Both the position numbers and the translations under genes were made by a program. A DNA stretch of 64,000 bases from assembly GCF_001677475.2 (NCBI RefSeq), contig NZ_CP015229.1; one strand, written 5' to 3'. Shown in pieces: positions 19,925 through 36,191 of this stretch; the first letter of the stretch is position 1; the number at the start of each line of letters is the position of its first letter. Origin of the DNA: Escherichia coli (lineage in GTDB: Bacteria > Pseudomonadota > Gammaproteobacteria > Enterobacterales > Enterobacteriaceae). Below the pieces are notes generated by a model, which searched no databases, was not told the origin of the DNA, and worked only from the letters and a program-made list of their open reading frames with translations.

Positions 19925-21766
<1,842 letters not shown>

Positions 21767-21844
21767 TCGGTAGGCCGGATCAGGTGTTACGCCGCACCCG
21801 GCACTAGTCCCTCCGCACAAACGCTACCTTTTCGGTGGCGTTTT

Positions 21845-22351
21845 TTATCGCCCACGCACTACCAGCGCCTGGTCCAGCTCGCGATACGCTTCAACCAGTT
21901 TCTCCAGTGAAACGCGACTTAAACCGCTGGGATTTGGCAGCACCCAAATCTGCGTCGAACCAATGGTGAGCGTTTGTTTCCCCCACTGTGCACCGCGCTG
22001 GCTGAATCCCTGTTCATATGCTTGTTTGCCCAGAATCGCCAACGCCTGCGGCTGATAATCTTCAATTTTTTCAATCAGCTTACGCCCGCCTGCGTGTAGT
22101 TCTTGCTTTGAAACTTCATTGGCTTGCACCGTTGGACGGTCTACCAGTTTGGTGACGCCACAACGATAATCCAGCAGATGCTGTGCCTCCTGCGGCTTCA
22201 ACTGACGGTCGGTAAACCCGGCCTGATATATCACCTTCCAGAAGCGATTTGCCGGATGAGCAAAGGGAAAACCAGTCCCGGCGGATGAAAGCCCAGGGTT
22301 GATACCGCAAAACACGACCCGTAACCCTGGAGCCAAAATATCCTCAACCAT
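21845..22351 (-). CDS. mug: G/U mismatch-specific uracil DNA glycosylase
   Basis: 168-aa [23 protein letters not shown]... Confidence 0.9.
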
Positions 22352-22475
22352 ATTTACTCCTTTCTAACATCACCAGGAAAAGTATAACGAATTGAAAATA
22401 CATTGTTTATAAAAACAGCAGGCGCGCGGTAATGGCTGGATTGCGACACGGAGTTACTTTATAATCCGCTACCAT

Positions 22476-22551
22476 GGCCCCTTAGCTCAGTGGTTAGAGC
22501 AGGCGACTCATAATCGCTTGGTCGCTGGTTCAAGTCCAGCAGGGGCCACCA
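22476..22551 (+). tRNA. ileX: tRNA-Ile (anticodon CAU, lysidine-modified)
   Basis: 76-nt sequence ggccccttagctcagtggttagagcaggcgactCATaatcgc...gggccacca folds as a canonical cloverleaf with CAT anticodon and encoded CCA; its 3' 46 nt are repeated at 36093-36141. Confidence 0.92.
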
Positions 22552-22554
22552 GAT
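22506..22554 (+). repeat. attL core (3' part of ileX plus 3 nt)
   Basis: Exact 49-bp identity with 36093-36141, read directly from the sequence. Confidence 0.85.
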
Positions 22555-22593
22555 TTCAATGAATTACAGATGTATCCAAACTATCTTGCTTTA

Positions 22594-22627
22594 CCAGGAT
22601 ACTTATAGGATACCTCTGAGAAGTATT
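22594..22627 (+). promoter_or_regulatory. Arm-type repeat near attL (AGGATAC motifs; candidate integrase/accessory-factor binding site)
   Basis: ccaggatacttataggatacctctgagaagtatt closely matches 35964-35997 near attR (29 of 34 positions). Confidence 0.45.
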
Positions 22628-22765
22628 AACAAGTAAGAATTGGCTCATGCCTACAGAACAGTTGGGTCGTAGCAGCCGTTCACCTGCGAACAAGAAAGTG
22701 CTACGGGTCTGAACTTTTGCCCCCAACTCTCCAAGAGACCGGCAAAAACCCTGACGGAGGTATCA

Positions 22766-22909
22766 ATGGATACTTTAAGAAAGGGCTCAGACCTGCTGTC
22801 TGCACGTGTGATTGCCGTTACAGGTTTAATCGCAGCACTTGGCAATTTAGGTCTATGCCCAATAGCCGTAGTGCTAGTATGTATAGCTTTAGTTATCATG
22901 CTGAAGTAA
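22766..22909 (+). CDS. 47-aa small hydrophobic membrane peptide (MDTLRKGSDLLSARVIAVTGLIAALGNLGLCPIAVVLVCIALVIMLK)
   Basis: Strong SD (ggagg) 6 nt upstream of ATG; followed by hairpin gcccagctttcgctgggc; a single predicted TM helix. Too short to be in the ORF track. Confidence 0.5.
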   Translation: MDTLRKGSDLLSARVIAVTGLIAALGNLGLCPIAVVLVCIALVIMLK

Positions 22910-23356
22910 TGACAGCGTAACAAGCTCGGCCCAGCTTTCGCTGGGCCTCCCATTTCTACCTCCCAAAATCTATTAGAAACAATAAGCCACTAAAGAAAGA
23001 GCTTTTGCTGGCTACAATACTCACATACAAACAATTTTTATTTTTCGCGGGCGTAAAAAAACGATGGGGCTGGCAGTCCGGAAGACGTCAGGGTACAGAG
23101 ATTTGTACCCGCCTCTCCCTGTGCATGAGCACAATAAGTAACCGAAGGCGGAATTCCGCCCTCGGTACTCACATATGAGAAACGATATTTCTTCCACCGA
23201 TACCCTTTATTTGGGTATCGCGAGTAAGCCCCAAAATCTGGGTGTTACTCTTACTACCCAAACTACGGGTAGTTTCCGTAGTTTCATGGTCGAGTTGCAG
23301 ATCTGCAACTCACCCACCAGCCAACGCAATTTTGCGTTATCGGGAATATCAGCAAG

Positions 23357-23641
23357 TTACCGCCGCAGTCGTTCCGGCTTCTTCCACTGGTAAGTATTTT
23401 TCGCGCTCTCCCTCCGTTGTTGAGAACGGCGACGGTATGCCAGCAACTCAAGGACTCTGATCCGTATGTCGCGCATATCCACGCCGTTAAGCTCGATACC
23501 GTCACGGCGCATCATCTCTGCCACCACACGCGCGTAATTTTCGGCTATCACGCTGTCCGGCTGCGTGGCCTCCTATTTGCTTGATGGTTGTTTGATTCCG
23601 GTAACGCGGCGGATTAATCCCAGCAATTCAGATTCTGTCAT
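23357..23641 (-). pseudogene. Amber-interrupted ORF downstream of terS (remnant of a packaging-module gene)
   Basis: MTESELLGLIRRVTGIKQPSSK, then in-frame TAG, then the 64-aa ORF 23357..23551 in the same frame; start overlaps terS stop. Confidence 0.35.
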
Positions 23642-23652
23642 AGTGCGCTACG

Positions 23653-23973
23653 TTACTTGTCTTTATTCGGCTGCAACTTATCCGGCACATTTCCGGTAGT
23701 TTCCATCAGGTAATCAGCCAGTATCTGTGGGAGGTTGTCGGCAACTCTGGCACTGGCATTACAGGCTTTAACCACTTCCCTTTTAAGCCCATCCAGCATA
23801 GCGGGGGTAATGTGTGGGAAGCTCCTTTGCATAGTAAGCGGGAGGCTGTCCATGATTGATGAAATCTGACTCGCCAGTTTTGAAAGCGCGTACATGCAAA
23901 ACTCTGTATCAATCACGTCACCGCGATCGCGCTCGTTTTTAAGTTCCTGCGCCTCCGCCTGTGCTGTCAGTAA
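23653..23973 (-). pseudogene. Small terminase subunit (lambda Nu1-like), C-terminal fragment separated from its N-terminus by the IS insertion
   Basis: Translation ...AQAEAQELKNERDRGDVIDTEFCMYALSKLASQISSIMDSLPLTMQRSFP... parallels lambda Nu1 C-terminal region (...AQADAQELKNARD...ETAFCTFVLSRIAGEIASILDGLPLSVQRRFP...) from memory. Confidence 0.7.
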
Positions 23974-24085
23974 TCTGATCCTGACTCGTAAGTATGAGAC
24001 GACAATAACTCAGTCCGCCTGGCGCCGATTATTCTGGCCGGTTTTGTAACCTGAGTGTCATTTACATGATCCAACAGGAAATGGC

Positions 24086-25465
24086 GTGACGCTCAATACT
24101 TCTCAGGTCAGTTACTATATGACTCAGCGTAAGAAAGGTATAACTCAGCATATCTCGGCCATGAAGGCTGGTATCTCAGTCCGTTCTGGTCGTCGGATCG
24201 AAAAAGGAGAGTGGGCAAAAAACAGTGTTCGGCACTGGCGCACACGCAAAGATCCTCTGGAAGCTGTGTGGGACAGCATGCTTGTTCCTCTGTTGAAAGA
24301 GAGGCCGGCTCTGACACCAACAACTCTACTGGAGATGCTACAGGATAAATATCCCGGCCAGTACCCCAACAGCCTTCGAAGAACAATGCAACGGCGGGTT
24401 CGCGAATGGAAACTACAGTATGGTACAGAGCAGGAGGTCATGTTCCGCCAGCAACATCAGCCCGGCCTGCGAGGCCTGTCGGACTTTACTGAACTGAAAG
24501 GTGTAGTTGTCACCATCGCCGGTAAGTTGTTGGCGCATAAGTTGTATCACTTCCGTCTGGAATGGAGCCACTGGAGCTGGATGCGGGTTGTTCTGGGTGG
24601 TGAGAGCTTCTCTGCTCTGGCTGAAGGCCTGCAGGAAGCCCTCGGACAACTGGGCGGAGTGCCGGTAGAACATAAAACGGACAGCCTGAGGGCAGCATGG
24701 AAACAACAGGGCGAAGATGGACGCCGCGAGCTGACTGAGCGTTATGCTACTCTCTGTCAGCACTACGGAATGCAGGGCGTACACAATAATGCCGGTCGGG
24801 GCCACGAAAATGGCTCGGTTGAAAGTGCCCACGGACATCTGAAAAGGCGTATCTGTCAGGCGCTGATACTGCGGGGCAGTAACGACTTCAGCACCATAGA
24901 AGAATATCAGGCCTTCATCACTCAGCAGGTTATGCGGCACAACCGTAACAATCAGGATCTGGTCAAGGAAGAACGTCTTCATCTGAAACCGCTGCCGCTT
25001 CGTCGCAGTGCTGACTATGATGAGCTGACTGTGAGGGTTAGTCGCAGCAGTACCATCAATGTGAAGCACGTCGTCTACAGCGTACCTTCCCGGCTTGTAG
25101 GTCAACTGTTACGGGTCAGGTTATGGGACGATCGTCTGAGCTGTTACGTTGGCAGCAGCGAGGTCATGAGCTGCCCTCGCGTCAGACCAGAAAAAGGGAA
25201 GACGCGGGCCCGTCGTATCGACTTCCGACATGTGATCGACAGTCTGGCAAAAAAGCCCGGTGCGTTCTGCCATGCAACGCTGAGAAATGACATCCTGCCG
25301 GACGATGAATGGCGGAGGCTGTGGCGTCGCTTATGTAATCATCTGGAGCCCGATATGGCAGGAAGGCTGATGGTACATGCCGGGAAACGTGGATCTGCAC
25401 CGGCTGATGCGCTTCCTGGGTATAAAAGAAAAGGCGTTGCCGGTAGTCAATGTGATACAGCATAA
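24086..25465 (+). CDS. istA: IS21-family transposase IstA
   Basis: 459-aa ORF (GTG start) with N-terminal HTH and DDE-type catalytic region; sits immediately upstream of an IstB-like gene. Confidence 0.8.
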   Translation: MTLNTSQVSYYMTQRKKGITQHISAMKAGISVRSGRRIEKGEWAKNSVRHWRTRKDPLEAVWDSMLVPLLKERPALTPTTLLEMLQDKYPGQYPNSLRRTMQRRVREWKLQYGTEQEVMFRQQHQPGLRGLSDFTELKGVVVTIAGKLLAHKLYHFRLEWSHWSWMRVVLGGESFSALAEGLQEALGQLGGVPVEHKTDSLRAAWKQQGEDGRRELTERYATLCQHYGMQGVHNNAGRGHENGSVESAHGHLKRRICQALILRGSNDFSTIEEYQAFITQQVMRHNRNNQDLVKEERLHLKPLPLRRSADYDELTVRVSRSSTINVKHVVYSVPSRLVGQLLRVRLWDDRLSCYVGSSEVMSCPRVRPEKGKTRARRIDFRHVIDSLAKKPGAFCHATLRNDILPDDEWRRLWRRLCNHLEPDMAGRLMVHAGKRGSAPADALPGYKRKGVAGSQCDTA

Positions 25466-25510
25466 CCTGAGCAGTTATGAGCAACTACTGCGTGGCAAGG
25501 GAGGTTCGCA

Positions 25511-26266
25511 GTGAGCAATATCCATCACCTTGAACATAGCCTGCGTAAACTACGCCTGACACGAGTTGGAGCTGAATGGCACGCTCTGGAAAAACGAGCG
25601 CTGGCAGAAGGCTGGACACCATCGCGCTATCTTCTGACGCTATGCAATGAAGAACTCCTGTGGCGCGAGAGTGAAAAACTGCGTCGTTATAAAAAGGAGG
25701 CCCGGTTGCCAGTTGCCAAAACGCTGAGCGAATACGACTTCAGTCAGGTGCCGGAACTGAATGGAGCTCAGTTCCGGCAACTCTGTGAAACGACAGACTG
25801 GGTTGATGCAGGAGAAAACGTTCTGCTGTTCGGAGCCAGCGGGTTGGGGAAAAGCCATCTGGCGGCAGCGATCGTGGATGGCGTAGTAGGTCAGGGCTAC
25901 CGGGCCCGGTTCTACAGCGCAGGAGAGCTGTTGCAGGAACTACGTAAAGCCAGAGCTCAGTTGAAACTGAATGAGCTGCTACTGAAACTGGATCGCTACC
26001 GGGTGATAGTGGTGGATGATCTTGGCTATGTCAAACGCGATAGTGCCGAAACGGGTGTGCTGTTCGAGTTAATAGCGCATCGCTATGAACGTGGGAGCCT
26101 GGTGATAACCAGTAACCATCCGTTCAGCATGTGGGGCAGCATCTTCGTGGATGAGACTATGGCGGTGGCTGCGGCAGACAGGCTGATCCATCACGGATAT
26201 ATGTTCGAACTGAAAGGGGAAAGCTACAGGAAAAAGACAGCGAAGGCAGTAACAAGCGCGACTTGA
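25511..26266 (+). CDS. istB: IS21-family helper ATPase IstB
   Basis: 251-aa ORF with Walker A (GASGLGKSHLA) and Walker B (VIVVDDLGY) motifs; RBS gggagg upstream of GTG start. Confidence 0.85.
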   Translation: MSNIHHLEHSLRKLRLTRVGAEWHALEKRALAEGWTPSRYLLTLCNEELLWRESEKLRRYKKEARLPVAKTLSEYDFSQVPELNGAQFRQLCETTDWVDAGENVLLFGASGLGKSHLAAAIVDGVVGQGYRARFYSAGELLQELRKARAQLKLNELLLKLDRYRVIVVDDLGYVKRDSAETGVLFELIAHRYERGSLVITSNHPFSMWGSIFVDETMAVAAADRLIHHGYMFELKGESYRKKTAKAVTSAT

Positions 26267-26325
26267 TGTCGCCCTGAAGGGTGCGGCCAGTATAGTTGGC
26301 GCGAGTCGGCAAAACTAGTTGACGT

Positions 26326-26526
26326 CTAATATCGTAAGAGTTCATCATCATCAATCTCGCCTTTGTCGTTTGTAAGCTGGCTAATTGCATTGTTAACCCT
26401 ATTGTCTATCACGCTGGCAACATCATAAAACGCCTCACGGCCTTTACGTTCAACGGGAGTCACTCCCCACTTGTCGAATGCTGTAGCACTTACCCGGCAG
26501 CTTTGCGCCATGGTTTTTTTGTTCAT
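26326..26526 (-). pseudogene. Small terminase subunit (lambda Nu1-like), N-terminal fragment truncated at the IS boundary
   Basis: MNKKTMAQSCRVSATAFDKWGVTPVERKGREAFYDVASVIDN... parallels lambda Nu1 N-terminus (MEVNKKQLADIFGASIRTIQNWQEQGMPV...); ORF ends exactly at the IS junction. Confidence 0.7.
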
Positions 26527-26639
26527 CAGGTGCGATTTCATCAATATCCCAACTTGGTCAAGGTTTCAGGTTGGTGTGTTGGTGTTATCTTTCCCTTTTT
26601 ATTCATGGAGATAGAGCAAACAACAAAACCACCACCACC

Positions 26640-26745
26640 CCCCTGAAAAAGCTCATAAATAGCGAAAAACCGCGAGGTCGCCGCCCCGTAACGGGTCCAT
26701 ATGCCGGAAAGGACCCGTAAAAAAAGCCGGATTTCTCCGGCCTTG
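26640..26745 (-). other. Lambda-type cos site (cosN with flanking terminase-binding region)
   Basis: Minus strand reads ACGGGTCCTTTCCGG...CGTTACG-GGGCGGCGACCT-CGCGGTTTTTCGCTATTTATGA, nearly identical to the phage lambda cohesive-end region as I recall it (GGGCGGCGACCTCGCGGGTTTTCGCTATTTATGAAAA); lies ~150 nt upstream of the Nu1-like start. Confidence 0.75.
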
Positions 26746-26747
26746 TC

Positions 26748-27161
26748 TCAGATGGTTTTCAGTATGCGATCGATGTCGCCATCATCGCCCGGGTTTCTGC
26801 CAGCGTATGCCATACCAGCTGATACGGCTTTCGGGCTGTGCATGTCCATAAAGTTTTCAAAGGCTGCGGTAAGCTCTGGTGCAACCTTCTGGCGTTCCTG
26901 CTCTATGGTCATGCTAAGGATGCTTTTAGCCGTACCAACATCGATACAAGGCACGTTTGCCATTGCACGTAACAGCGGCTGATAGTCGCCAGATTCATCA
27001 AGCGCCATAATCGCATCAGAGCGCGGCTTGTCCTTCTCTTCCAGGCTGTTAAGTTGATATACGGCCTCGTAGGTTGATAAACCTCTGTCAGCCATTGCCC
27101 GCGCTTCGGCCTTAAATTTACTCGCCAGCGGTAGCGTCATGATGCTTTCATTCGTTGCCAT
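26748..27161 (-). CDS. Hypothetical protein (137 aa) between decoration-like gene and cos
   Basis: ORF with no motif I recognise; co-oriented with capsid genes. Confidence 0.55.
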   Translation of the reverse strand: MATNESIMTLPLASKFKAEARAMADRGLSTYEAVYQLNSLEEKDKPRSDAIMALDESGDYQPLLRAMANVPCIDVGTAKSILSMTIEQERQKVAPELTAAFENFMDMHSPKAVSAGMAYAGRNPGDDGDIDRILKTI

Positions 27162-27173
27162 CGTTCCCTCTGC

Positions 27174-27509
27174 TTATCGGGCCAGTGGCTGAACGGATAC
27201 GCCAGAACCCGCAAAGGCGGCGCATTTTTTCGCATCGGTGTCGACGCTCTCAGGCCAGTTAACGGCGGCGATATTAAATATCCCCGTCTTATAGCACTGT
27301 GCTGATTTCTGCGTCGACGTGTCAACGGGGTACGAGGTCAGATAAACAGCCTTGCCAGATTCCTGACCATCCCACGGCTTAAACTCGCCATTTTCCGCCA
27401 GCATCAGCGGGGTAAATTCCTGAATAACTCCAGCATCAGCGGCAAAATGTACCAGCGTCGTGGATACCTGCTGACTGCCTGCAAATAACTCAATGTATGG
27501 AGTGTTCAT
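27174..27509 (-). CDS. Head decoration protein (lambda gpD-like)
   Basis: 111-aa ORF, size and position next to an E-like capsid gene match lambda D (110 aa); assignment by context and size, weak sequence recall. Confidence 0.6.
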   Translation of the reverse strand: MNTPYIELFAGSQQVSTTLVHFAADAGVIQEFTPLMLAENGEFKPWDGQESGKAVYLTSYPVDTSTQKSAQCYKTGIFNIAAVNWPESVDTDAKKCAAFAGSGVSVQPLAR

Positions 27510-27520
27510 AGAATCCCCCG

Positions 27521-28576
27521 TTAAGCAATTTTGACGGTAACAAATTTGCGAATATCTGCCGGTACCGGCTGCGGTGCGCTGTGCGTCTGCACGTACTCAA
27601 TCGCCGGATCGCCATCCTCAATCCAGTTTTTCGGGTAGTACATGTTTTGCGTTGCGCCAGTTCTTACCGCTTCCGGATCCATAATCGCACCATAGGCCAC
27701 CAGCCCTTTATTGTTAGTGTTGCCCAGGACAAGCAAATCAGGCTCAAGGAAATATTTTTCGGTGCCATCGCTGTCGGTGTATTTGCCGGAATAGACGATA
27801 AGGGCCAGATCACCCAGATAGCCTTTAAAGCTCACCACTTCGCCCAGGTTTTTACAGGCCAGCTCTGCGGCGGATTCTGAACCACGGGAAAGATCGTACA
27901 GTTCACGGAATTTTTTAAAGCTGCGTAACGTGCGCCATACCTCAGCGCCCATAATCATGACGTTGGCGGGGCAACCAGCCTGATCGGTGTATAGTTCGAT
28001 GTCATAGATTGGATCGTGTGTTTCCTTATCTGCCTCAGACCACTTTTTGCCCGATCCCTGCGTAATGATGTTTTTAGTCGGGATTTTCCAGTCGATTTCG
28101 TATCTATTTATTCCTTCGCCCTCAATGATGTTTTTTCCGGTCGTGACCGCATTCACCGCCAGCCATTCTATGCGAGCTTTAATAGCGTTTACCTGGCGGC
28201 GCATGTTGCCAGTAATCAGGCGCATACGGCGATAAGTTGGATCGTTAAGCTGTGCCGGATCTTCTCCAGCCATGCGCATGATGGTTTTTGATGGATCGAT
28301 TTCGTGTTTTGGTTTCATATAGCCAGGGCGGATAGTGCTTGTTTCGTACCCTTTATCGCGCTGAACCTGACTCCCCACCATAGGCGAACAAAAAGCCGAC
28401 ATGGTGACTTCTTCAATATCCAGGGTATCTAACATGATGTCCTGCGTGTTGAAGGTTGCCACGTTCGGGAAAAACAGCGACGTAAACAGCGGACTGAATT
28501 TAAATTCCGAAATATCCCCACGATTCAGGTACGCGAAAAGCTGGTTAGTGTTAAGTGCCGTTGCTTTGCCTGTCAT
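27521..28576 (-). CDS. Major capsid protein (lambda gpE-like)
   Basis: 351-aa ORF aligning along its length with lambda E from memory: FKFSPLFTSLFF / FKFDPLFLRLFF, PGYMKPKHEIDP / PGYVKPKHEVNP, YSGKY...LVLGNTNN...YPKNW / YSGQY...MVLGNTQA...YPKNW. Confidence 0.8.
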   Translation of the reverse strand: MTGKATALNTNQLFAYLNRGDISEFKFSPLFTSLFFPNVATFNTQDIMLDTLDIEEVTMSAFCSPMVGSQVQRDKGYETSTIRPGYMKPKHEIDPSKTIMRMAGEDPAQLNDPTYRRMRLITGNMRRQVNAIKARIEWLAVNAVTTGKNIIEGEGINRYEIDWKIPTKNIITQGSGKKWSEADKETHDPIYDIELYTDQAGCPANVMIMGAEVWRTLRSFKKFRELYDLSRGSESAAELACKNLGEVVSFKGYLGDLALIVYSGKYTDSDGTEKYFLEPDLLVLGNTNNKGLVAYGAIMDPEAVRTGATQNMYYPKNWIEDGDPAIEYVQTHSAPQPVPADIRKFVTVKIA

Positions 28577-28815
28577 TATTCACCCCCATGAGTCTGATTC
28601 ATGCCCAGCGCCGCGCGTAAATAGGCGCGTACCTGCCAGCCTGTTGACGGCTCAACCATCGCCAGCGGCTCAAGTCCTGCCGCAATGCCTGCTTTTACGT
28701 TCTGCTGGTGGCGTTCCTTGAGCGCCTCCACGATGTCTGGGCTTATGTAAACTGTCACCCCGCCTTTTTTCTCTTCTGCCATAGTCGGAAATTCCTCTTT
28801 GACGTTAAAAATCAC
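28576..28815 (-). CDS. Hypothetical small protein translationally coupled to the capsid gene
   Basis: 79-aa ORF (possibly starting at internal MAEEKK); stop shares one base with the capsid ATG. Confidence 0.5.
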   Translation of the reverse strand: MIFNVKEEFPTMAEEKKGGVTVYISPDIVEALKERHQQNVKAGIAAGLEPLAMVEPSTGWQVRAYLRAALGMNQTHGGE

Positions 28816-28846
28816 AACTGGATGTTCATCCAGTTGTGATTATAAT
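28811..28846. promoter_or_regulatory. Perfect 14-bp inverted repeat plus TATAAT box upstream of the capsid operon
   Basis: atcacaactggatg-tt-catccagttgtgat immediately followed by tataat; read directly. Confidence 0.45.
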
Positions 28847-28951
28847 CATGATTTCATTTTACGCAATAATGTTGAGTTGTGTTGCAAATTGTGAAATGAT
28901 TTCCGGCAACAGTAGTCACCATACTGTTAGATAAAAGCCTCATATGCAAAA

Positions 28952-29028
28952 GCCCGATAAGACCCTCTGACCTTATCGGGCTTTTTTTGGGGCATAAAAA
29001 AGCCGGACTTCTCCGGCTTCTGTTACTC
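28952..29028. terminator. Pair of intrinsic terminator hairpins between the SSB gene and the capsid operon
   Basis: gcccgataag...cttatcgggc followed by T-run; and gccggacttctccggc flanked by A-run / T-run (functional on minus strand). Confidence 0.55.
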
Positions 29029-29033
29029 GTTGC

Positions 29034-29456
29034 TTAAAACGGTATGTTATCCCCGTACGGATCATCGTTACCCGCCTGTTGTTTTGCCCTGTTCAGTGCG
29101 TCAGTAGCCTGCCCTTGCTGGCCTTTTTTGCCGCCCGGTCGCGCCGTTCTCGCACTGATTACGCTGTCTGCGATAACCTGCCAGCCCTGCCGCGTTTCGC
29201 CGTTCTGGCCTGTCCACTGGCTTACCTGCATGTTACCCGCCACGCTCACCAGTTCGCCTTTGTGGTGTTTTGCCAGTGCGTCGGCCTGTCTGCCAAACGC
29301 CAGGACGGATAACCACATCGTCGCCGTTCCGTCATCTGCCTGGCTGCACGGAAGGGGGACCGCCATACTAGCCATCGTCATTTGTGTACCCTTGCTGGTG
29401 GTCTTTAACTGCGGGTCAGCCACCAGCCGCCCGTAAGCCGCTATCTGTGCTGTCAT
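29034..29456 (-). CDS. Single-stranded DNA-binding protein (island-encoded SSB)
   Basis: 140-aa ORF; Gly/Gln-rich linker and acidic C-terminal tip ...DDPYGDNIPF resembling the SSB C-terminal DDDIPF motif. Confidence 0.75.
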   Translation of the reverse strand: MTAQIAAYGRLVADPQLKTTSKGTQMTMASMAVPLPCSQADDGTATMWLSVLAFGRQADALAKHHKGELVSVAGNMQVSQWTGQNGETRQGWQVIADSVISARTARPGGKKGQQGQATDALNRAKQQAGNDDPYGDNIPF

Positions 29457-29698
29457 GCTGTCTGCTCTCCGGTTTTAACGTTGATGGTTGTCACCTGTTC
29501 CGCTTCGGCAATCTCCCGTTCTGTCAGCGTGGCAAAGTTTGCAGCTGCCGTTGTCATGAATGCGCTAATCAGTTCGGGATGTGCTTTCGCATATCCTTCC
29601 CCGGCGTTGCGGTCGATGATTTTTATCGACACCCTTAACCAGTGTTCCGTCAAATCAAGGGCGTGCGATTGTGATTTTTTTGTGTGCTTCGCTGTCAT
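29453..29698 (-). CDS. Hypothetical protein (81 aa), coupled to ssb by ATGA overlap
   Basis: ORF directly downstream of the iteron array; no recognised domain. Confidence 0.5.
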   Translation of the reverse strand: MTAKHTKKSQSHALDLTEHWLRVSIKIIDRNAGEGYAKAHPELISAFMTTAAANFATLTEREIAEAEQVTTINVKTGEQTA

Positions 29699-29742
29699 AG
29701 GCTTTATCTCACAGCAGTAAATTAAAATTTTTGCGTTTTAAC

Positions 29743-29971
29743 CCTTCACCTGTTCACCTTTTGATATTTTCCATTTAAATTCATACTGTTAAGGGGTGAA
29801 CAGTTTCACAAAAACTATTCACCAACTGTTCACCACTGTTCACCCTTGAAGCTCAATAAACAACCAAAAAGGTGAACAGTGAATAGTTTGGTGAATAGTT
29901 CATAAATAACTGTTCACCCTATAATATACTGATATAAAAGATATTTATGACAGGGTGAACAGTGGTGAACA
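29743..29971. repeat. Iteron array (P4 ori/crr-type TGTTCACC octamers)
   Basis: Perfect TGTTCACC at 29751, 29827, 29837, 29911 and its complement GGTGAACA at 29795, 29871, 29954, 29964, plus degenerate copies (tattcacc, ggtgaata), within ~230 bp immediately 3' of the primase gene. Confidence 0.8.
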
Positions 29972-29985
29972 GTTATTCCATAAGT

Positions 29986-31803
29986 TTAATTTTTGCTATC
30001 GTCATTAGTGACTGATACACATGATGGCATCCAGTCTTCTGATTCCTCCGTCAGTGTCACGTTTGAACGTAAACCGTGCTTCGTTTTCCGTTTTATATAC
30101 TCCCTGCCATATTCCGCCATTGCCCCAGGCATATCTTTACCGAAGCGCGTCAGTGTTACAGGTTTACCAAACCCATGAGCCCTCATATAAGCCAGATAGG
30201 CATGATAGAGATACCTGCGCGGGCTGAATGGCACAATTTCAGCATTACCCACTAACAGGCCATCACACATTACCGACGCCATGAGATAGCCGCAGAAGTC
30301 CACCAGCGAATCCCCCTCTCGCTTTATCGCCAGTGCTTCTTCAGATTTCTGCTGCTCATATAACAGGCGTCTGGCTTCGTCCTGGTCAGCAAACCTTGTA
30401 AGCAGATGGCGAATCACTACCGCCAGCTCACCTTCTATTTTTTCCGCCAGCATCGGATCGCGTTCGTTCTCCGGTACAACTTCCGAAAAATTGAATATCA
30501 CCCGACGACGTGAGATCCCCCCGCTGCGGTCACTGAATGACATGGCGTTATTGTTAACCGCCAGCACTACTGCCGGAATACGCGTTGAGTAGGGGGCTTT
30601 GTGTTTCGGGTCAATTGCCACCTTGTCACCGCCTGTAATGGCCTTAATTCCTGCCCCATCACCAGCGTAGCGGGTCATATCCGGCATGATAATCAGCGAA
30701 AAGCCAACCACTAACGCGCGTTCCCTTGCATCTTCCAGCGCCTTCATGCTTGCCGATACTGTGTTGGCCTTACCCGCCAGCATGGTGCAAATCTCCGCCA
30801 TCACGCTTTTACCACTTCCCCCTGGACCTGTTACCTCAATGAATAACTGCCAGTCGTACCGGTTCGCCAGCACCATGAATAATGCAGCCAGTACGCGATC
30901 CGCCTTGCGGTCATTCTCAGCCACCGAACGGCGTAACCACTTCCAGAAATTCGGCGCATGTGTTGCCAGCGTTTCCCCCTCTGCTGGTGGGCTGAAAGGT
31001 AATTCACTGGCAATTAACAACCAGTCGTTTTTGTTATGCTCCCGAAAATTACCTGTTCTGGTATCAAATACCCCGTTACTGAATCCAATCAGGTTACGGG
31101 CTGTATTCCCCATTACAGGCAAACTTAACTTCATGGTATCGACCGCCGATTTAATGGCGTTCTGCGAATAGCTGATCTCCGCATCAATGAAAATCTGCGC
31201 CATAGCACGCTGTAACTCTTTATCCTGAACCGGCTCCCATACAACGCCGTTGTAATGGTGAACAGTGTCAGAGTCAGCATGAATCGCCAGTTCACCGCCA
31301 TAATGTGCCAGGAGAACTTCGCCGCGTTGACTTGCTCCCATCTGGTTAAGCGCCAGTGATGAAGCGTTATCGTCTTTTACCCGCTCTTTTTTCTTTACAG
31401 GCAGTTCAACTACCTTTTTCTTTTCCGCCAGCTCTGCCCGTTCACGTTCCAGATATTCGCGCCAGTTCTCCCGTTTCTGGCTGTGCATTCCTTCAGGATA
31501 ATAATCAGCATCCCTGACACCTGCCGCTGCCAGTTTCTGCCCGATGGTATTAACAAGCCCCGGACGCAATAACCCCGCCTGGTAGAGACGCACACGATAG
31601 CGTCCGTCCGGTACGATTTGCAGGTTGTCCAGTTCGGCAAGTTGTTGCTCTCCAAGCCAGACAGGAGGCACGTTATCGCCAGCCAGTCGCCCGTCCTGTT
31701 CCTGCCACTGCTTCGCATGTGCCCACGCATCACTACCCGCAAAAATGATGACTTCCGTCATTTTGTCACGTGGCTGGTGTTTTAAATTTGGCGCTTTTTT
31801 CAT
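29986..31803 (-). CDS. Satellite replication protein (P4 alpha-like primase-helicase, D5-type NTPase)
   Basis: 605-aa ORF (likely start MKKAP with ATGA overlap to upstream gene); Walker A GPGGSGKS; adjacent to TGTTCACC iterons. Confidence 0.75.
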   Translation of the reverse strand: MKKAPNLKHQPRDKMTEVIIFAGSDAWAHAKQWQEQDGRLAGDNVPPVWLGEQQLAELDNLQIVPDGRYRVRLYQAGLLRPGLVNTIGQKLAAAGVRDADYYPEGMHSQKRENWREYLERERAELAEKKKVVELPVKKKERVKDDNASSLALNQMGASQRGEVLLAHYGGELAIHADSDTVHHYNGVVWEPVQDKELQRAMAQIFIDAEISYSQNAIKSAVDTMKLSLPVMGNTARNLIGFSNGVFDTRTGNFREHNKNDWLLIASELPFSPPAEGETLATHAPNFWKWLRRSVAENDRKADRVLAALFMVLANRYDWQLFIEVTGPGGSGKSVMAEICTMLAGKANTVSASMKALEDARERALVVGFSLIIMPDMTRYAGDGAGIKAITGGDKVAIDPKHKAPYSTRIPAVVLAVNNNAMSFSDRSGGISRRRVIFNFSEVVPENERDPMLAEKIEGELAVVIRHLLTRFADQDEARRLLYEQQKSEEALAIKREGDSLVDFCGYLMASVMCDGLLVGNAEIVPFSPRRYLYHAYLAYMRAHGFGKPVTLTRFGKDMPGAMAEYGREYIKRKTKHGLRSNVTLTEESEDWMPSCVSVTNDDSKN

Positions 31804-32099
31804 TTCTGCTCTCTCCACGCGGCAATCATGTTTTTCAGTTCCTGTAGTTTTTTATCAACATCCATACATGACACATGGTTATTTCTGGAAGGCGGGATTT
31901 CCCGCCGGAATCTGCAAATAAAGATCTCCACGTTCAGCGAGCTATGAAATGAATAGCCATCACGAATAAAATACACACGGTCAAACATTATCGATTTTAC
32001 TGTTACTCTGTTGCCGTTCTTATCCCGATAAATAGCGCCGGGGATAATTTTGGGATGTGCATAACCGCTGGCAGTCAAGCCAGATAAATACGTTCTCAT
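31800..32099 (-). CDS. Hypothetical protein (99 aa)
   Basis: ORF translationally coupled to the primase gene; no recognised domain. Confidence 0.5.
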   Translation of the reverse strand: MRTYLSGLTASGYAHPKIIPGAIYRDKNGNRVTVKSIMFDRVYFIRDGYSFHSSLNVEIFICRFRREIPPSRNNHVSCMDVDKKLQELKNMIAAWREQK

Positions 32100-32105
32100 G
32101 ATTAT

Positions 32106-32426
32106 TTATCCCCGATTTGAATCAGTATTCGCTTTCTTTATGGCATTTAATGCATCTGTGGCATTTTCAATGGTGCACCGTAACGAAATATCAAAATGTC
32201 CAAGCATTGCCAGTAACAAACCGATATTACCCATATCAATGCGCATGGCCTTTTCGTCATAGTCCTCATTTTCTGACGCATGCCACATCAGGCTACCAAT
32301 TGACGCAACGGCCATTGATATATTGTCAGTCGCCCCATCCGCAGCGGAATAAACCTTTTTAGCAATATCATGCTCACAGTTAAAATGCGGATTAATCAGG
32401 TACTGGTAATTTGACATATCAGGCAT
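32106..32426 (-). CDS. Hypothetical protein (106 aa)
   Basis: ORF upstream of the 99-aa gene; lower GC than flanking island DNA. Confidence 0.5.
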   Translation of the reverse strand: MPDMSNYQYLINPHFNCEHDIAKKVYSAADGATDNISMAVASIGSLMWHASENEDYDEKAMRIDMGNIGLLLAMLGHFDISLRCTIENATDALNAIKKANTDSNRG

Positions 32427-32622
32427 GGCACACCCCCTGACGAATACGGGCGGCGAATACCATCACGCAGCCAGCCGGGGAGTGCTGGCGTGCTTCCTGT
32501 TCGCTGGTGGCCACGATGGTAATCACACGCGGTTTTGCGGCGCTCAGGGCGATAAAACGCCAGGCGAATTTATTCAGGTTGTGCGAATCCCGCCCTTGCG
32601 GGTGTATGGTATGATTTCTCAT
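32419..32622 (-). CDS. Small protein, possibly Icd-like (host cell-division inhibitor family of P4-like elements)
   Basis: 67-aa ORF MRNHTIHPQGRDSHNLNKFAWRFIALSAAKPRVITIVATSEQEARQHSPAGCVMVFAARIRQGVCHA; the family assignment is from memory of similar annotations and is tentative. The 334-aa ORF in the track is an upstream stop-free extension that looks non-coding. Confidence 0.45.
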   Translation of the reverse strand: MRNHTIHPQGRDSHNLNKFAWRFIALSAAKPRVITIVATSEQEARQHSPAGCVMVFAARIRQGVCHA

Positions 32623-32717
32623 AGCTACCTCGATACTCTCGTTATCGTTGGTGGTTAGAAGCCCTGCGAGTGGTAACGACACTTGCGGGGCTTTGTTTTT
32701 TGTTGCACTTACTGTTA

Positions 32718-32763
32718 ATGTACGTACGTAATATTGATGATAATAGGAGTTACGTACGTACAT
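32718..32763. promoter_or_regulatory. Twin palindromic operator (two copies of TACGTACGTA, 30 bp apart) in a divergent promoter region
   Basis: atgtacgtacgtaat at 32718-32732 and gttacgtacgtacat at 32749-32763; second copy overlaps the start codon of the RHH-like gene. Confidence 0.55.
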
Positions 32764-32953
32764 GTCAACATTAAAGCGGGATAAATCACCACGCGGCGAG
32801 GGATGGTCGCCGACATTCCAGATACGAATTAGCAAAGAACTACGCCAGCAAGTAAACGAGGCAGCAACCGCCGATGGCCTAACCCTCGGCAATTGGTTTA
32901 AAGAATTAGCTCGTGCCGAACTAAAGCGACGCGGCATTGAACCTAAAGGCTGA
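32762..32953 (+). CDS. Small DNA-binding protein, probable ribbon-helix-helix fold
   Basis: 63-aa ORF; TFQIRISKELRQQVNEAA... resembles a beta-strand plus helix RHH pattern; two short basic ORFs follow at 32957-33082 and 33138-33317. Confidence 0.5.
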   Translation: MSTLKRDKSPRGEGWSPTFQIRISKELRQQVNEAATADGLTLGNWFKELARAELKRRGIEPKG

Positions 32954-33429
32954 TGTATGACTGAAAAGCAGACCGATAACAAACTTTCTCTACCAGAGAA
33001 TAAACCAGCAGGCTTCTTACCAAGAAAAATCCTTGATGAGATCAAACGCCGCCAGCGGCGCAAGGCCAAAGAGCAGGAGTAACCATCACCAGCGCCGTGG
33101 TGCGGTGAACTGTGGCGCACAGGGTTACAGGTATCTACGATGACTGACAAATCATTAAAGAAATTATCCTCATCCAAGAAAAAACAACGCAAAAATGCGG
33201 TAAACGAACATGAACCGGAGAGATTCGCACCATGTGCGTTTATCCTTGAGAAGTACCTTAAAGAGTATTCTAGGAAAATACGCTCATTGCAGGCATGGCA
33301 GCGAATCGAGCCAGACTGATAGCATTGCCCACCAGCCAACAACCTGGTATTCTGGATATGCTCAAGTTTAGTGTTATGCCACTGGCGGCCCTCTGCGGTC
33401 GCCTTTGTTTTATGTGCCATCACTCCCCC

Positions 33430-33648
33430 TTACACCGTCTGCGTTCTGCGAGTGGATGCAAGATAAGCATCGAGATCAGTGCGCATATACAGCACTTTGC
33501 GCCCCAGCTTATGGAAAGGGATTTTTACCTTGCCAGTACAGGCCCAGTTCGCCAGCGTTTGATTGTTAACGCCAAGGTAGGCAGCAGCTTCAGCACGTGT
33601 AAGGCGGTCAGTTGATAAATCAGATTTCTTTAAATTCATATCTATCAC
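33430..33648 (-). CDS. alpA: AlpA/excisionase-family HTH regulator
   Basis: 72-aa ORF with LTRAEAAAYLGVNNQTLANWACTGKVKIPFHKLGRKVLY (MerR-like HTH_17 pattern). Confidence 0.75.
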   Translation of the reverse strand: MIDMNLKKSDLSTDRLTRAEAAAYLGVNNQTLANWACTGKVKIPFHKLGRKVLYMRTDLDAYLASTRRTQTV

Positions 33649-33709
33649 CGTGTACTTCTAAGTAACAACGGTGATAAATATCAATCAATGGGTATTTTGT
33701 TTTTAGCCC

Positions 33710-33786
33710 AATAGCCAGTTGCTGTGGGGAGGTTACCAGTTATTTAGCCTTAATAGCCAGCTATTAAGATACACTAGCCAGCTATT
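33710..33786. promoter_or_regulatory. Three TAGCCAG-containing operator-like repeats upstream of alpA
   Basis: aatagccagttgc (33710), aatagccagctatt (33752), ctagccagctattg (33773); plus inverted repeat atcaccgtg...cacggtgat at 33651-33682. Confidence 0.45.
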
Positions 33787-34507
33787 GGGGGTGAACAAGT
33801 TCAAACGAAGAATATTTATCAGGTCTTGGTGGTTGTGCTCCTGATTCTTTAATCCATTTATCCAGAGTGTTTTTACTTACTTTCCCATGATAGTAAACAG
33901 AAAGCTCGTTCAATAAACCTGTTTTACTGGCTTTAGGGTACTTTTCCCATGTTAGTTTAATTACGTGCATAACTTCATTGTAATAATGATTTCTTGGTTT
34001 GCGCGCTTTTTCTTTCTGTGATAAGGATAAAGCATCTTTTATTTTTTTATCTTTTTCATGGTTCGATATAATTTCTTCAAAAAAGTCATTAAGCAATAAC
34101 TCAACACCAACCCTAGTAAGTTTGTCTGCGTGATTACGCATTCCGACATGGTACAATGCAACTGCTGAATTTAAAGTATCGACAACCTGACAAGATAGTT
34201 TACTATCAAATATTAAAAAACCACATGAATCCATTCTTATAGCTAATTCAATAGGATATTGCTCGATTTCTCTTAATTCTAAACCATAACACAAAAGAAA
34301 TTCTCTTGTTGGATACTTTGATTTATAAAAATAATCTCTTATATCATCAATCAAGCGTTTTATAGCCTCTATGGTGGAGTTTTTCGGGGATAAAGATACA
34401 GGAACGTTTAAAACTGAAGAGTCTCGCCCACCAGTAATTAAATCATTCATAACCGAATAAATAATATATTGTTTGACCGATATATTGTTATCACCCATAT
34501 ATGTCAT
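33782..34507 (-). CDS. AT-rich orphan protein (241 aa) in the integrase-proximal cargo position
   Basis: Long ORF with visibly lower GC than the rest of the island; overlaps the int stop; no motif I can recognise. Confidence 0.6.
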   Translation of the reverse strand: MTYMGDNNISVKQYIIYSVMNDLITGGRDSSVLNVPVSLSPKNSTIEAIKRLIDDIRDYFYKSKYPTREFLLCYGLELREIEQYPIELAIRMDSCGFLIFDSKLSCQVVDTLNSAVALYHVGMRNHADKLTRVGVELLLNDFFEEIISNHEKDKKIKDALSLSQKEKARKPRNHYYNEVMHVIKLTWEKYPKASKTGLLNELSVYYHGKVSKNTLDKWIKESGAQPPRPDKYSSFELVHPQ

Positions 34508-35912
34508 TCTTTTCTTGTACTATAGCAAATAGTAAACGACGTTTTTCATCATCACTCATGCCCTCCAGTGCGGAAAGTAATTGCGCATCGATAGATTTTT
34601 TACTCTCCACCAGCCCGGCATGTTCCAGAATTGCCCGTTCTATCCGTGATGCTGGCTCCAGCAGTTCATCAGCACCGAAATGTAAATACCCCTGCGTTAC
34701 GTCGGCACTTCGCATAGTGCGGTGATTCATCAGGCGCTTGAGGATGTAATTACCCACGCCCACCAGCTCAGCAACCGTTCCGAACGTCCGGCGTGCGTCG
34801 TGCCACTTAAACGGGACAGGGAAGAGCATTTCATCGTTCGCCTCAGGAATGGTAGCCGCGCTTATCCGGTCTATGATGTGCCGTGTCTCCTGAATCACTC
34901 CCTTCACGCCAGGAAACACCAGCACATCATCAGCAGCTTTGTTTTTTAGCCTGCGAAGAAACATTTTCCGCAACGTATCAGTGATCGGCAGTTCAAGCGG
35001 ATCCCCGTTTTTCGTGGTGTCTATCCAGAAAAAGCGACCGCCCATATTCACGCGATCCCACGTAAGGCCAAAAACTTCTGATTTCCTCAGTCCGGTAAAC
35101 AGTGCCATTTCCACGGCATCACATACCGTAACAGCTATATCATCCCTTTCCTGTTCGCCCTGGTCGCGCACAGCAGCTACAGCAGCAAACCAGCGGGGAA
35201 AATCATGCAGGCGGATACGTTCCGTTTTTCTTACCGTTCCGTGCCACTGGCGCTTGGTGCTCAGTACCAGAGTCGGCGGATCCGGTAAAAGAGTATTACC
35301 CGCATCATCACGGTAATGATCATGCGCAAACCGACACACAGCACGTAGCGCACGCGCCCATAAATCGGCCTGTGCCTTGCTTCCTGTACCAACCCCAGCC
35401 CGTAACGTGGTTTTATCAGCACCGAACCATACAGCCCCATCAGTGATGGCCTTATGCCGTTGTTCCACCCGTTCGCGGGAAATACTGGCGAGGGTATGGG
35501 CCATCCAGTCACCGGAATAATTCTGTAATATGCTGCGGTACTGTTTTTCTGTGGAGGGTTTCAGGCGGTGGCCACGATTTTTTACGTAGGCGTCAATCGC
35601 CTCACTCAGCGTTATCATGGCCTTGTTGTTAGTGCGCTTTGCTATGTTCGGATTTATCCCCGTTGTGGCGACTTCGCCAAGGAGTTCCATAGCTTTAGCC
35701 CTGGCATTATCCACGCTCAGATCAGGAAAACGCCCCAGCGTTGCACGAATAAATTTTCCGTTACGCTTACGGGAAATGCAGAAACTTTTCACACCAGACG
35801 AACCTACACGGACACGCAGCCCGTTAACCTCCGTATCACCATATTCGACCTGTCCATGTTCCGGCGTTGGCAGTTCTGCAATTTTTACTTTAGAGAATCT
35901 GAATAATTTCAC
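34491..35912 (-). CDS. int: Tyrosine site-specific integrase
   Basis: 473-aa ORF from a GTG start; catalytic signature region (LRKSE..., WHDARRTFGT, ...QGYLHF) with an N-terminal arm-binding-like domain. Confidence 0.85.
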   Translation of the reverse strand: MKLFRFSKVKIAELPTPEHGQVEYGDTEVNGLRVRVGSSGVKSFCISRKRNGKFIRATLGRFPDLSVDNARAKAMELLGEVATTGINPNIAKRTNNKAMITLSEAIDAYVKNRGHRLKPSTEKQYRSILQNYSGDWMAHTLASISRERVEQRHKAITDGAVWFGADKTTLRAGVGTGSKAQADLWARALRAVCRFAHDHYRDDAGNTLLPDPPTLVLSTKRQWHGTVRKTERIRLHDFPRWFAAVAAVRDQGEQERDDIAVTVCDAVEMALFTGLRKSEVFGLTWDRVNMGGRFFWIDTTKNGDPLELPITDTLRKMFLRRLKNKAADDVLVFPGVKGVIQETRHIIDRISAATIPEANDEMLFPVPFKWHDARRTFGTVAELVGVGNYILKRLMNHRTMRSADVTQGYLHFGADELLEPASRIERAILEHAGLVESKKSIDAQLLSALEGMSDDEKRRLLFAIVQEKNDIYG

Positions 35913-35935
35913 TCATACACCCCACCAAGCGATCT

Positions 35936-35997
35936 GGTATCCTGGAAAATCGCTTGTTCTGCTCCAGGATACCTATAGGATACCGTAAAGAAGTATT
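35936..35997 (+). promoter_or_regulatory. Arm-type repeats near attR, directly upstream of the integrase start
   Basis: ggtatcctgg / ccaggatacc inverted pair plus tandem GGATACC copies and the block shared with 22594-22627. Confidence 0.45.
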
Positions 35998-36092
35998 TTG
36001 GGGTATATACAGGTATTTATACAGTAGTTTTAAAAAATGCTAAGGTATTGAAAAGTATCGCTAAGTATCTGTAAGTAAAGGGTTATCAACCA

Positions 36093-36141
36093 ACTCATAA
36101 TCGCTTGGTCGCTGGTTCAAGTCCAGCAGGGGCCACCAGAT
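36093..36141 (+). repeat. attR core (displaced partial copy of tRNA-Ile 3' end)
   Basis: 49-bp exact copy of 22506-22554; upstream sequence is not tRNA-like, so this is not a functional tRNA. Confidence 0.85.
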
Positions 36142-36191
36142 ATAGCAAAGGCTGACGAGAAATCGTCAGCCTTTTTCTTTTTATATATCAG

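Follow-up and report, generated by a model that had tools for sequence, protein, structure and literature searches.

A short reading frame at the attL edge of a mobile element in Escherichia coli is very probably a real gene. It lies on the plus strand at 22766-22909 of the window, by which we mean the whole 64,000-nucleotide stretch of DNA that was analysed, and encodes a hydrophobic peptide of 47 amino acids belonging to a family with members of 47-49 aa. The gene is part of a module of ~320 nt (22631-22952, +), in which ~130 nt upstream and ~40 nt downstream of the reading frame are conserved at least as well as the reading frame itself. This conservation corresponds to a folded mRNA whose architecture is previously undescribed. 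The reading that we consider best, and that we put forward tentatively, is that of a gated membrane peptide resembling the type I toxins.

The host element and its attachment sites

The window shows the E. coli gene order rpoD (19925-21766), mug (21845-22351, -) and a tRNA gene with a CAU anticodon (22476-22551, +). The tRNA gene was identified by ARAGORN (anticodon CAT) and by the tRNA model of Rfam with 73 bits. From synteny and established knowledge we take it to be ileX, which encodes the lysidine-modified tRNA-Ile2; at the syntenic rpoD-mug locus of strain KC-Dl-1, the PGAP call for the corresponding tRNA is tRNA-Ile. This gene is the integration target. The 3' part of the tRNA forms the attL core (22506-22554), a direct repeat of 49 nt which recurs with 100% identity as the attR core at 36093-36141 (repeat search, family D1), and the two repeats flank a 13.6-kb insertion in ileX. 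As a result of the insertion, the native intrinsic terminator of ileX (AAAGGCTGACG...CGTCAGCCTTT followed by a T-run, as read from the sequence at 36147-36183, +) was moved 13.6 kb away from the functional tRNA and now lies beyond attR. The peptide reading frame starts 212 nt inward of attL, and the 49-nt repeat at the 3' part of the tRNA confirms the attL-edge position that the preliminary description had given it.

Between attL and the module there are two AGGATAC repeats, 11 nt apart (22596-22613, +; repeat family D2), which are putative arm-type sites presumably bound by the integrase. They recur near int (35966-35985) and are unchanged in the ileX-type variants; they are missing from a copy in Erwinia that is linked to ssrA. 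The tyrosine-integrase-like gene itself is found at the far, attR end of the insertion (34491-35912, -), and its 92%-identical L001 homologue is annotated by PGAP as 'integrase family protein'. Integrase homologues with 69-97% identity to the window copy are located at the far end of the other module-carrying islands, where contigs extend that far. Since int reads away from the att site, the peptide gene and int would be divergent across attP in the excised circle.

The 13.6-kb insertion contains, in addition to the integrase, a P4-family primase, capsid and head-decoration genes and an IS21 element. The preliminary description had likened the gene to ones often found at prophage ends, but judged by gene content and att repeats the host element is a phage satellite, in the sense of P4-like elements, PICIs or cfPICIs, and not a full prophage. 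It combines a size in the range of ~10-15 kb with att repeats, an integrase, a primase/replication module and a partial capsid/packaging set, and related loci carry the sets of TerL, TerS, HNH, portal, protease and capsid genes that are typical of cfPICIs.

The peptide gene and its conservation

The reading frame runs from the ATG at 22766 to the TAA at 22909, and its translation is MDTLRKGSDLLSARVIAVTGLIAALGNLGLCPIAVVLVCIALVIMLK. As had been noted before, it is preceded by a strong Shine-Dalgarno sequence (GGAGG, 22756-22760, 5 nt before the ATG) and followed by a GC hairpin, GGCCCAGC-TTTC-GCTGGGCC (22928-22947, +). The hairpin has 8 bp (arms 22928-22935 and 22940-22947), and most variants have a GAAA tetraloop where the window copy has TTTC. 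Lacking a U-tract behind it, the hairpin does not qualify as a canonical intrinsic terminator, and it was not called in the terminator scan. The GRAVY value of the peptide is 1.53 for the whole sequence and 2.36 for residues 10-46; basic residues are present at both termini, with K, RR or RK at the C-terminus. With these properties the peptide would be expected to insert into the inner membrane. The earlier designation as a single-TM peptide is borne out with respect to hydrophobicity, whereas the single TM segment is uncertain: an AlphaFold2 model (pLDDT 71) has two helices, comprising residues 4-28 and 31-46, with a kink at a conserved Gly/Pro.

Among 5426 complete E. coli genomes there are 28 carriers, and in all 28 no feature is annotated at this segment, which makes the gene unannotated, as originally stated, for RefSeq E. 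coli. In NCBI and UniRef, the identical protein and its relatives are present under the label 'hypothetical protein'. A word-indexed search yielded the identical protein and four relatives with 72-83% identity and a length of 47-48 aa. The peptide family is compact: an exhaustive profile HMM search, run against 1.84 billion representatives, turned up just two further true clusters, both distant and of 48 aa, and a spurious repeat protein from the same search (P0007) was discarded as a family member. With the invariant 20-nt stretch of the reading frame as probe (see below), 5 species genomes, from Enterobacter, Superficieibacter, Trabulsiella, Yersinia and Citrobacter, and 16 metagenome contigs were recovered. 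A wider profile gave at least 60 clusters at 90% identity, all of them named 'hypothetical' and distributed over Escherichia, Klebsiella, Raoultella, Salmonella, Citrobacter, Pseudocitrobacter, Erwinia, Morganella and Proteus.

The preliminary description had, beforehand, made conservation of the reading frame in related islands the test of the proposal. We found the frame intact at 47-49 aa in 42 of 42 recovered loci, which together encode 23 distinct peptides, and the frame is under purifying selection. The distance from the ATG to a conserved Lys is five codons, and six in one variant that has an in-frame insertion of one codon. Substitutions are concentrated at third codon positions, and residues R14, G20, L21, L25, G29 and L46 (window numbering) are invariant despite the use of 3-4 different third-position bases. 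The median pairwise dN/dS was 0.23 in the peptide frame versus 0.86 and 1.90 for the two alternative frames, as calculated from the same alignment for all frames and with the RNA-constrained block left out. The longer overlapping reading frames of 67 aa (+) and 100 aa (-), already suspected to be artefacts, are not conserved: across the variants, the stop-free spans range from 19 to 95 codons for the former and from 33 to 106 codons for the latter.

The mRNA folds into a four-way junction

RNAalifold consensus structures of 26 and then of 28 variants had an identical junction architecture, all elements of which are on the plus strand. The conserved leader starts with a small 5' hairpin of the form GGC-N4-GCC (22642-22651; MFE fold), which in two of three subfamilies appears as GGCC-GAAA-GGCC or similar. 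The leader core that follows (22664-22711) consists of the 5' arm of helix a, hairpin b and the 5' arm of helix c. In helix a, as given by RNAalifold and pair counts, the leader sequence GGGU (22664-22667) is paired with GCUC in the 3' UTR (22924-22927; consensus of the 3' arm GCYC). Hairpin b is contained within the leader, with CGTAGCA (22668-22674) opposite TGCTACG (22699-22705). Helix c pairs GGUCUG of the leader (22706-22711) with CAGACC in codons 8-10 (22788-22793), and helix d pairs UGCUGU in codons 10-12 (22794-22799) with ACAGCG (22912-22917) just past the stop. The 3' UTR arms thus occupy 22912-22927, in the order helix d 3' arm, linker TAACAA and helix a 3' arm. Arms a and b, b' and c, and c' and d abut without an unpaired nucleotide, which results in a four-way junction linking leader, early codons and 3' UTR.

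Standard pairs were present in 99.6% of 806 cells (26 variants) versus 29-40% when the partners were slid by 1-3 columns, a control that is somewhat flattering because the structure was derived from the same sequences. Double changes accounted for 45 cells, and the observed values were reached by 0 of 500 shuffles. In helix b, compensatory double changes occur at 3 positions and none is broken; for the 3' hairpin, four compensatory positions are seen when 26 variants are counted, and five in the alignment of 28. Variation in helices c and d was, in the 26 variants, confined to the non-coding side and consisted of C-to-U changes opposite G and A-to-G changes opposite U. These changes are tolerated solely as G.U pairs, which on the other strand would be A.C, and the structure is therefore specific to the plus-strand RNA. 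In Erwinia, a G-C pair of helix c is replaced by A-U through a synonymous GAC-to-GAT change in the reading frame and a GGG-to-GGA change in the leader. Helix a is almost invariant and for that reason is untested by covariation. The window sequence alone also folds into the same junction, with -115.1 kcal/mol and z = -4.33, and 0 of 100 shuffles were as stable; the folding z of the reverse complement of the module was -2.2. An alternative pairing of AGUUGGG with CCCAACU, seen in two subfamilies, was set aside as not universal, its partner being deleted in L014-type variants.

The coding-side arms of helices c and d are both contained in an invariant block of 20 nt, AAGGGCTCAGACCTGCTGTC (22781-22800, +), which covers codons K6-S12 and is identical in 26 of 26 DNA variants. 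It is unchanged even between peptides that are ~45% identical, and dS elsewhere is ~1.4. Zero synonymous changes were found in alignment codons 7-12 (K6-L11 of the window peptide) among 24 CDS variants. The block differs in Proteus L042 and in Erwinia L047, the latter being the copy with the compensated pair in helix c. Neither the junction nor this block featured in the preliminary description.

Predicted control of translation

Helix c encloses a domain (22712-22787, +; MFE fold) that comprises an inner hairpin (TTTTGCC/GGCAAAA), the GGAGG, the ATG and codons 2-7. When the variants were folded individually, the 3' half of the Shine-Dalgarno sequence was paired with codons 2-4 in nearly all of the 26, and the AUG was located in the loop. 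Residues 2-5, which are poorly conserved, change together with the nucleotides on either side of the Shine-Dalgarno. Its median unpaired probability was 0.31, with a local hairpin of -3 to -10 kcal/mol. Given that the ribosome-binding site lies inside the helix-c domain and the Shine-Dalgarno is paired, translation would be throttled by folding.

Deletion of the 3' UTR in silico left the accessibility of the Shine-Dalgarno unaltered, and a 3'-processing switch in the style of hok or aapA1 is accordingly unsupported. Since the occlusion is moderate and independent of the 3' UTR, we read the fold as a throttle and not as a processing switch. The folding models thus show a trait of type I toxins, an mRNA fold predicted to impede initiation, with the Shine-Dalgarno partly sequestered.

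Genomic position and source of transcription

The module is always the first gene behind an RNA gene and on the same strand, and 99-125 nt separate the CCA end from the leader. What follows as cargo varies by locus, from a lambda-E-like capsid with a decoration protein, or a ClpP-capsid fusion with DUF1441, to a full cfPICI-type cargo of TerL, TerS, HNH, portal, protease and capsid. Further plus-strand accessory genes stand immediately behind the module in several islands, and the core satellite genes, all on the minus strand, read towards it. In Erwinia aphidicola, one copy is located behind smpB-ssrA (tmRNA) and has unrelated arm sequences. Therefore the module is not strictly tied to one integrase, and the idea that it is strictly a part of the ileX integrase module is weakened by this copy. 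Placement behind a stable-RNA gene recurs at two integration sites, ileX and ssrA.

A promoter scan of the plus strand (sigma-70) returned nothing at threshold for the module. The alignments suggest a weak candidate -10 box, TATTAA (22624-22629, +), with no recognisable -35; it lies behind the putative arm sites and reads TATAAT in L005 and TATTAT in Proteus. Because the tRNA terminator has been displaced to attR, the module is probably transcribed, in most variants, by read-through from the strong tRNA promoter. Such read-through is plausible in view of the spacers between RNA gene and leader, 25 of 30 distinct ones having no terminator-like hairpin; as the other 5 do have one, read-through is not a universal source of transcription. 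A putative weak promoter of the module itself, overlapping the arm sites, may also feed its transcription.

Searches for an antitoxin and for known families

An Rfam 15 scan of 21800-36000 in E-value mode returned the tRNA alone, with chance-level matches elsewhere, and no covariance-model match was obtained for the antitoxin and prophage sRNA families Sok, IstR, OhsC, OrzO, Sib, Rdl and C4/P4 CI. The window contains no second complementary copy of the 20-mer, even at up to 3 mismatches. On the minus strand, a promoter-like TTGACA-18-TAGAGT is present in ~6 of 23 variants; a cis-antisense promoter was rejected as a feature of the family because it is limited to this subset and follows from the codons used there.

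At the protein level, Pfam contained no matching family at E <= 10 for the window peptide or at E <= 0.1 for 5 members, and the Pfam toxin families Hok/Gef (PF01848), Ldr, TisB, Ibs and ShoB were not matched. NCBIfam gave no match at E <= 10, and the best E-values in PHROGs v4, which includes holins and spanins, were 0.08-1.6 and belonged to unrelated families without known function. The defence HMMs of PADLOC-DB 2.0 returned 0 families at E <= 10 for 4 members, a sequence search of the PDB gave no credible match, and a literature search on the peptide motif, on ileX satellites and on type I toxins in satellites produced nothing on this system. By all of these sequence and covariance-model tests, the module is outside every described family. 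The likeness to type I toxins that had been suggested is therefore upheld in part: it extends to the small hydrophobic peptide, the structured leader, the 5'-3' pairing and the partly sequestered Shine-Dalgarno, but neither an antisense RNA nor a known toxin family was found.

Interpretation and alternative explanations

In its size, hydrophobicity, basic C-terminal residues and Gly/Pro kink, the peptide agrees with the features described for type I toxins, and the C-terminal Lys/Arg of AapA1 is required for toxicity (PMC8309996). Long-range mRNA pairing is typical of messages whose product must stay off (PMC5416894, PMC6733600). Our preferred, tentative reading of a gated, toxin-like membrane peptide is consistent with both, and with residence on a mobile element. 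Very little peptide would be made before the mRNA is remodelled or processed, and the peptide might stabilise the island or interfere with phages. A more specific version, which we consider improbable, is a device that responds to the integration state, that is, a killer or signal without antitoxin that is gated by RNA structure and coupled to the physical state of the satellite. With no strong promoter of its own and a seat 99-125 nt behind an RNA gene whose terminator has been displaced, such a device would be transcribed mainly from the promoter of the host RNA gene, and only while integrated. The four-way junction would keep the message inert and protected from nucleases, and excision, helper-phage infection or RNA processing would shift supply or fold and free the membrane-active peptide.

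The same coding and RNA evidence would also fit a harmless small membrane protein that the lysogen expresses (a 'moron'), with an RNA structure that sets low expression and stabilises the transcript. Such a protein might modulate a host membrane protein or act in superinfection exclusion or lysis timing; it would not be toxic and would not belong to a toxin-antitoxin pair. We regard this explanation as rather unlikely, while acknowledging that several observations speak for it: an antitoxin RNA was not found by Rfam, by complementarity within the window or by promoter conservation, occlusion of the Shine-Dalgarno is only partial, and other plus-strand accessory genes stand directly behind the module in several islands. 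A seat just inside att and behind a constitutive host promoter is, moreover, typical for accessory genes expressed in lysogens. However, ordinary accessory genes do not usually have so elaborate and conserved a pairing between leader, codons 8-12 and 3' UTR, and no match to a characterised small membrane regulator was obtained in NCBIfam, Pfam or PHROGs. We assign a low probability to a further explanation, in which the RNA is the main product and the peptide secondary. The RNA could be a satellite regulatory RNA, or a structured trailer replacing the displaced tRNA/tmRNA terminator, which would provide defined processing and a 3'-end barrier and shield the minus-strand satellite genes from read-through. 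The displaced native terminator and the minus-strand core genes converging on the module agree with this, as do the constant spacing of 99-125 nt and orientation behind an RNA gene at two integration sites, and the conservation of leader, junction and 3' hairpin beyond synonymous sites, with the 20-nt block kept at the nucleotide level. Yet it leaves unexplained the amino-acid purifying selection outside the RNA-constrained block, and the conserved Shine-Dalgarno, ATG and stop position indicate translation. The 3' hairpin lacks a U-tract and hence is not an efficient intrinsic terminator, and five variants already carry a terminator-like hairpin upstream of the module.

The segment is located within ~450 bp of the att core and adjoins the AGGATAC repeats, from which one might suppose that it is no gene at all and is conserved as attP-arm DNA, for example as integrase, excisionase or IHF sites. 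This is very improbable, given the third-position bias and the frame-specific dN/dS, and given that changes tolerated only as G.U pairs are strand-specific and point to RNA and not to DNA. The Erwinia module, in addition, is kept with entirely different arms at ssrA, and to our knowledge typical attP arms do not reach 200-450 bp.

Significance

An uncharacterised family of small proteins, present in many clinically relevant Enterobacterales and skipped by the RefSeq annotation of E. coli, is now backed by comparative gene evidence. Its seven codons that are frozen at the nucleotide level provide a clean model of overlapping protein and RNA constraint, and the invariant 20-mer can serve as a marker for ileX-targeting satellites. 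Should the peptide prove to be a gated toxin, it would represent a new type I-like family, the first to be tied to the integration end of a phage satellite, and would be relevant to island stability, to the conflict between satellite and helper, and to phage defence. A non-toxic peptide would still be a membrane factor expressed in lysogens and common to otherwise unrelated satellites.

Comparison with known systems

In the lambda sib retroregulator and in P4 Pint, which overlaps attP, integration or excision changes the upstream sequence. The module resembles them as a regulatory nucleic-acid element whose upstream changes in this way, but differs in being divergent from int in the excised circle. 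A sib-like retroregulation of int is excluded, because int is transcribed away from the att site. Morons are normally simple promoter-gene-terminator cassettes. The module shares with att-adjacent moron membrane proteins its att-proximal position, an orientation that would allow expression independent of lytic operons, and variable neighbouring cargo; it differs from them in its conserved mRNA with a four-way junction and in having neither a canonical promoter nor a canonical terminator.

The toxins of tisB/istR-1, zorO/orzO, dinQ/agrB and shoB/ohsC are inner-membrane peptides whose primary transcripts are inert through 5' UTR structure. Small size, hydrophobicity and a structured 5' UTR are common to these peptides and the one described here. 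Unlike the latter, they have 26-29 aa, a nearby divergent small-RNA gene and no link to att sites, and none of their Pfam, NCBIfam or Rfam models matches the module. The hok mRNA is several hundred nt long and has 5'-3' pairing, a buried ribosome-binding site and a stable 3' stem-loop. Hok/sok of plasmid R1 and chromosomal E. coli therefore presents a counterpart to the module in all of these respects, and it likewise encodes a hydrophobic peptide of ~50 aa on mobile DNA. In contrast to hok/sok, the module has no match to the Hok_Gef family of Pfam, no overlapping leader reading frame like mok, no Sok-like RNA and no conserved antisense promoter, and the hairpin at its Shine-Dalgarno forms locally, without involvement of the 3' end.

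The aapA1/IsoA1 system of Helicobacter pylori encodes a peptide of 30 aa, as opposed to 47-49 aa here, and resides on Helicobacter chromosomes instead of enterobacterial satellites; the module also differs from it in having no detected antisense gene and no predicted activation by 3' trimming. What the two have in common is a fold that impedes (in the module, is predicted to impede) translation, a C-terminal Lys/Arg and conservation of structure over sequence. The fold of the full-length aapA1 mRNA impedes translation of the small membrane toxin, and homologues of aapA1 are recognisable by mRNA structure more than by peptide sequence (PMC5416894).

Genomic settings of the peptide module and its neighbours

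The module encoding the 47-aa hydrophobic peptide was not found at ileX alone, as in Erwinia aphidicola (locus L047; 127-489 and 588-886) the same peptide/RNA module was located behind smpB-ssrA (tmRNA). At this locus a canonical terminator came right after the tmRNA, and the arm sequences differed from those at ileX. In one module subfamily, a plus-strand gene for a 262-aa protein started ~60-90 nt past the peptide module (L014, 452-1240; L047, 929 onward; L048, 933 onward; L049, 449 onward). Neither PADLOC nor NCBIfam gave a match for this protein, and no Pfam hit is recorded for it; it may be cargo transcribed together with the module, or else its functional partner.

At two module-bearing loci, L011 (around 1050-1300 on the minus strand) and L048 (455-515), the only part of the tRNA found ahead of the module was its 3' half, an internal att repeat. 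We therefore conclude that satellites or islands are tandemly stacked at ileX. The upstream element in L048 bears an AIPR abortive-infection gene.

Promoter-like sites and att-flanking motifs

Opposite codons 1-13 of the peptide gene, a good sigma-70-like promoter was present on the minus strand in L032, L034, L038, L042 (Proteus), L045 and L024, and consisted of TTGACA or CTGACA, an 18-nt spacer, and TAGAGT or TAGATT. This promoter-like site would produce an RNA antisense to the Shine-Dalgarno/AUG region. The subfamily to which the window's module belongs had no minus-strand sigma-70-like promoter opposite these codons. Upstream of ileX (22441-22465) we observed a perfect TATAAT at 22460-22465, and the -35 is uncertain because the obvious candidate, TTGCGA, lies just 13 nt upstream of it; the promoter scan called no site in this region.

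The att core was flanked on both sides by AGGATAC motifs, which are presumed to be arm-type sites of the integrase. Those of the left arm (22596-22613) immediately adjoin the peptide module's candidate -10, and the int side (35937-35985) carries two direct copies (35966-35985) as well as an inverted GGTATCC (35937-35946).

Replication region and composition of the satellite

Direct and inverted GGTGAACAGT-type repeats were densely clustered at 29774-29987 (repeat families D5, D8, I1, I2, I13, I20 and I21), immediately upstream of the minus-strand gene for the P4-family primase (29986-31818). By its appearance, this cluster looks like the iteron-type replication origin of the satellite.

Segment 23035-23200 was common to ~418 E. 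coli genomes at 80-100% identity, compared to 28 with the peptide module. It contains a strong palindromic hairpin (23141-23166) that the terminator scan scored as a minus-strand terminator, and that probably terminates the satellite's leftward operon. The satellite also harbours an IS21-family element (24086-26266; IstA 24086-25465, IstB 25511-26266). When we compared the island with its counterpart at the syntenic ileX locus of E. coli strain KC-Dl-1, the two had 22555-23616, 29034-32694, 33049-34013 and 34579 onward in common, whereas the stretches between these segments differed. The window's island is thus a mosaic relative to that of KC-Dl-1.
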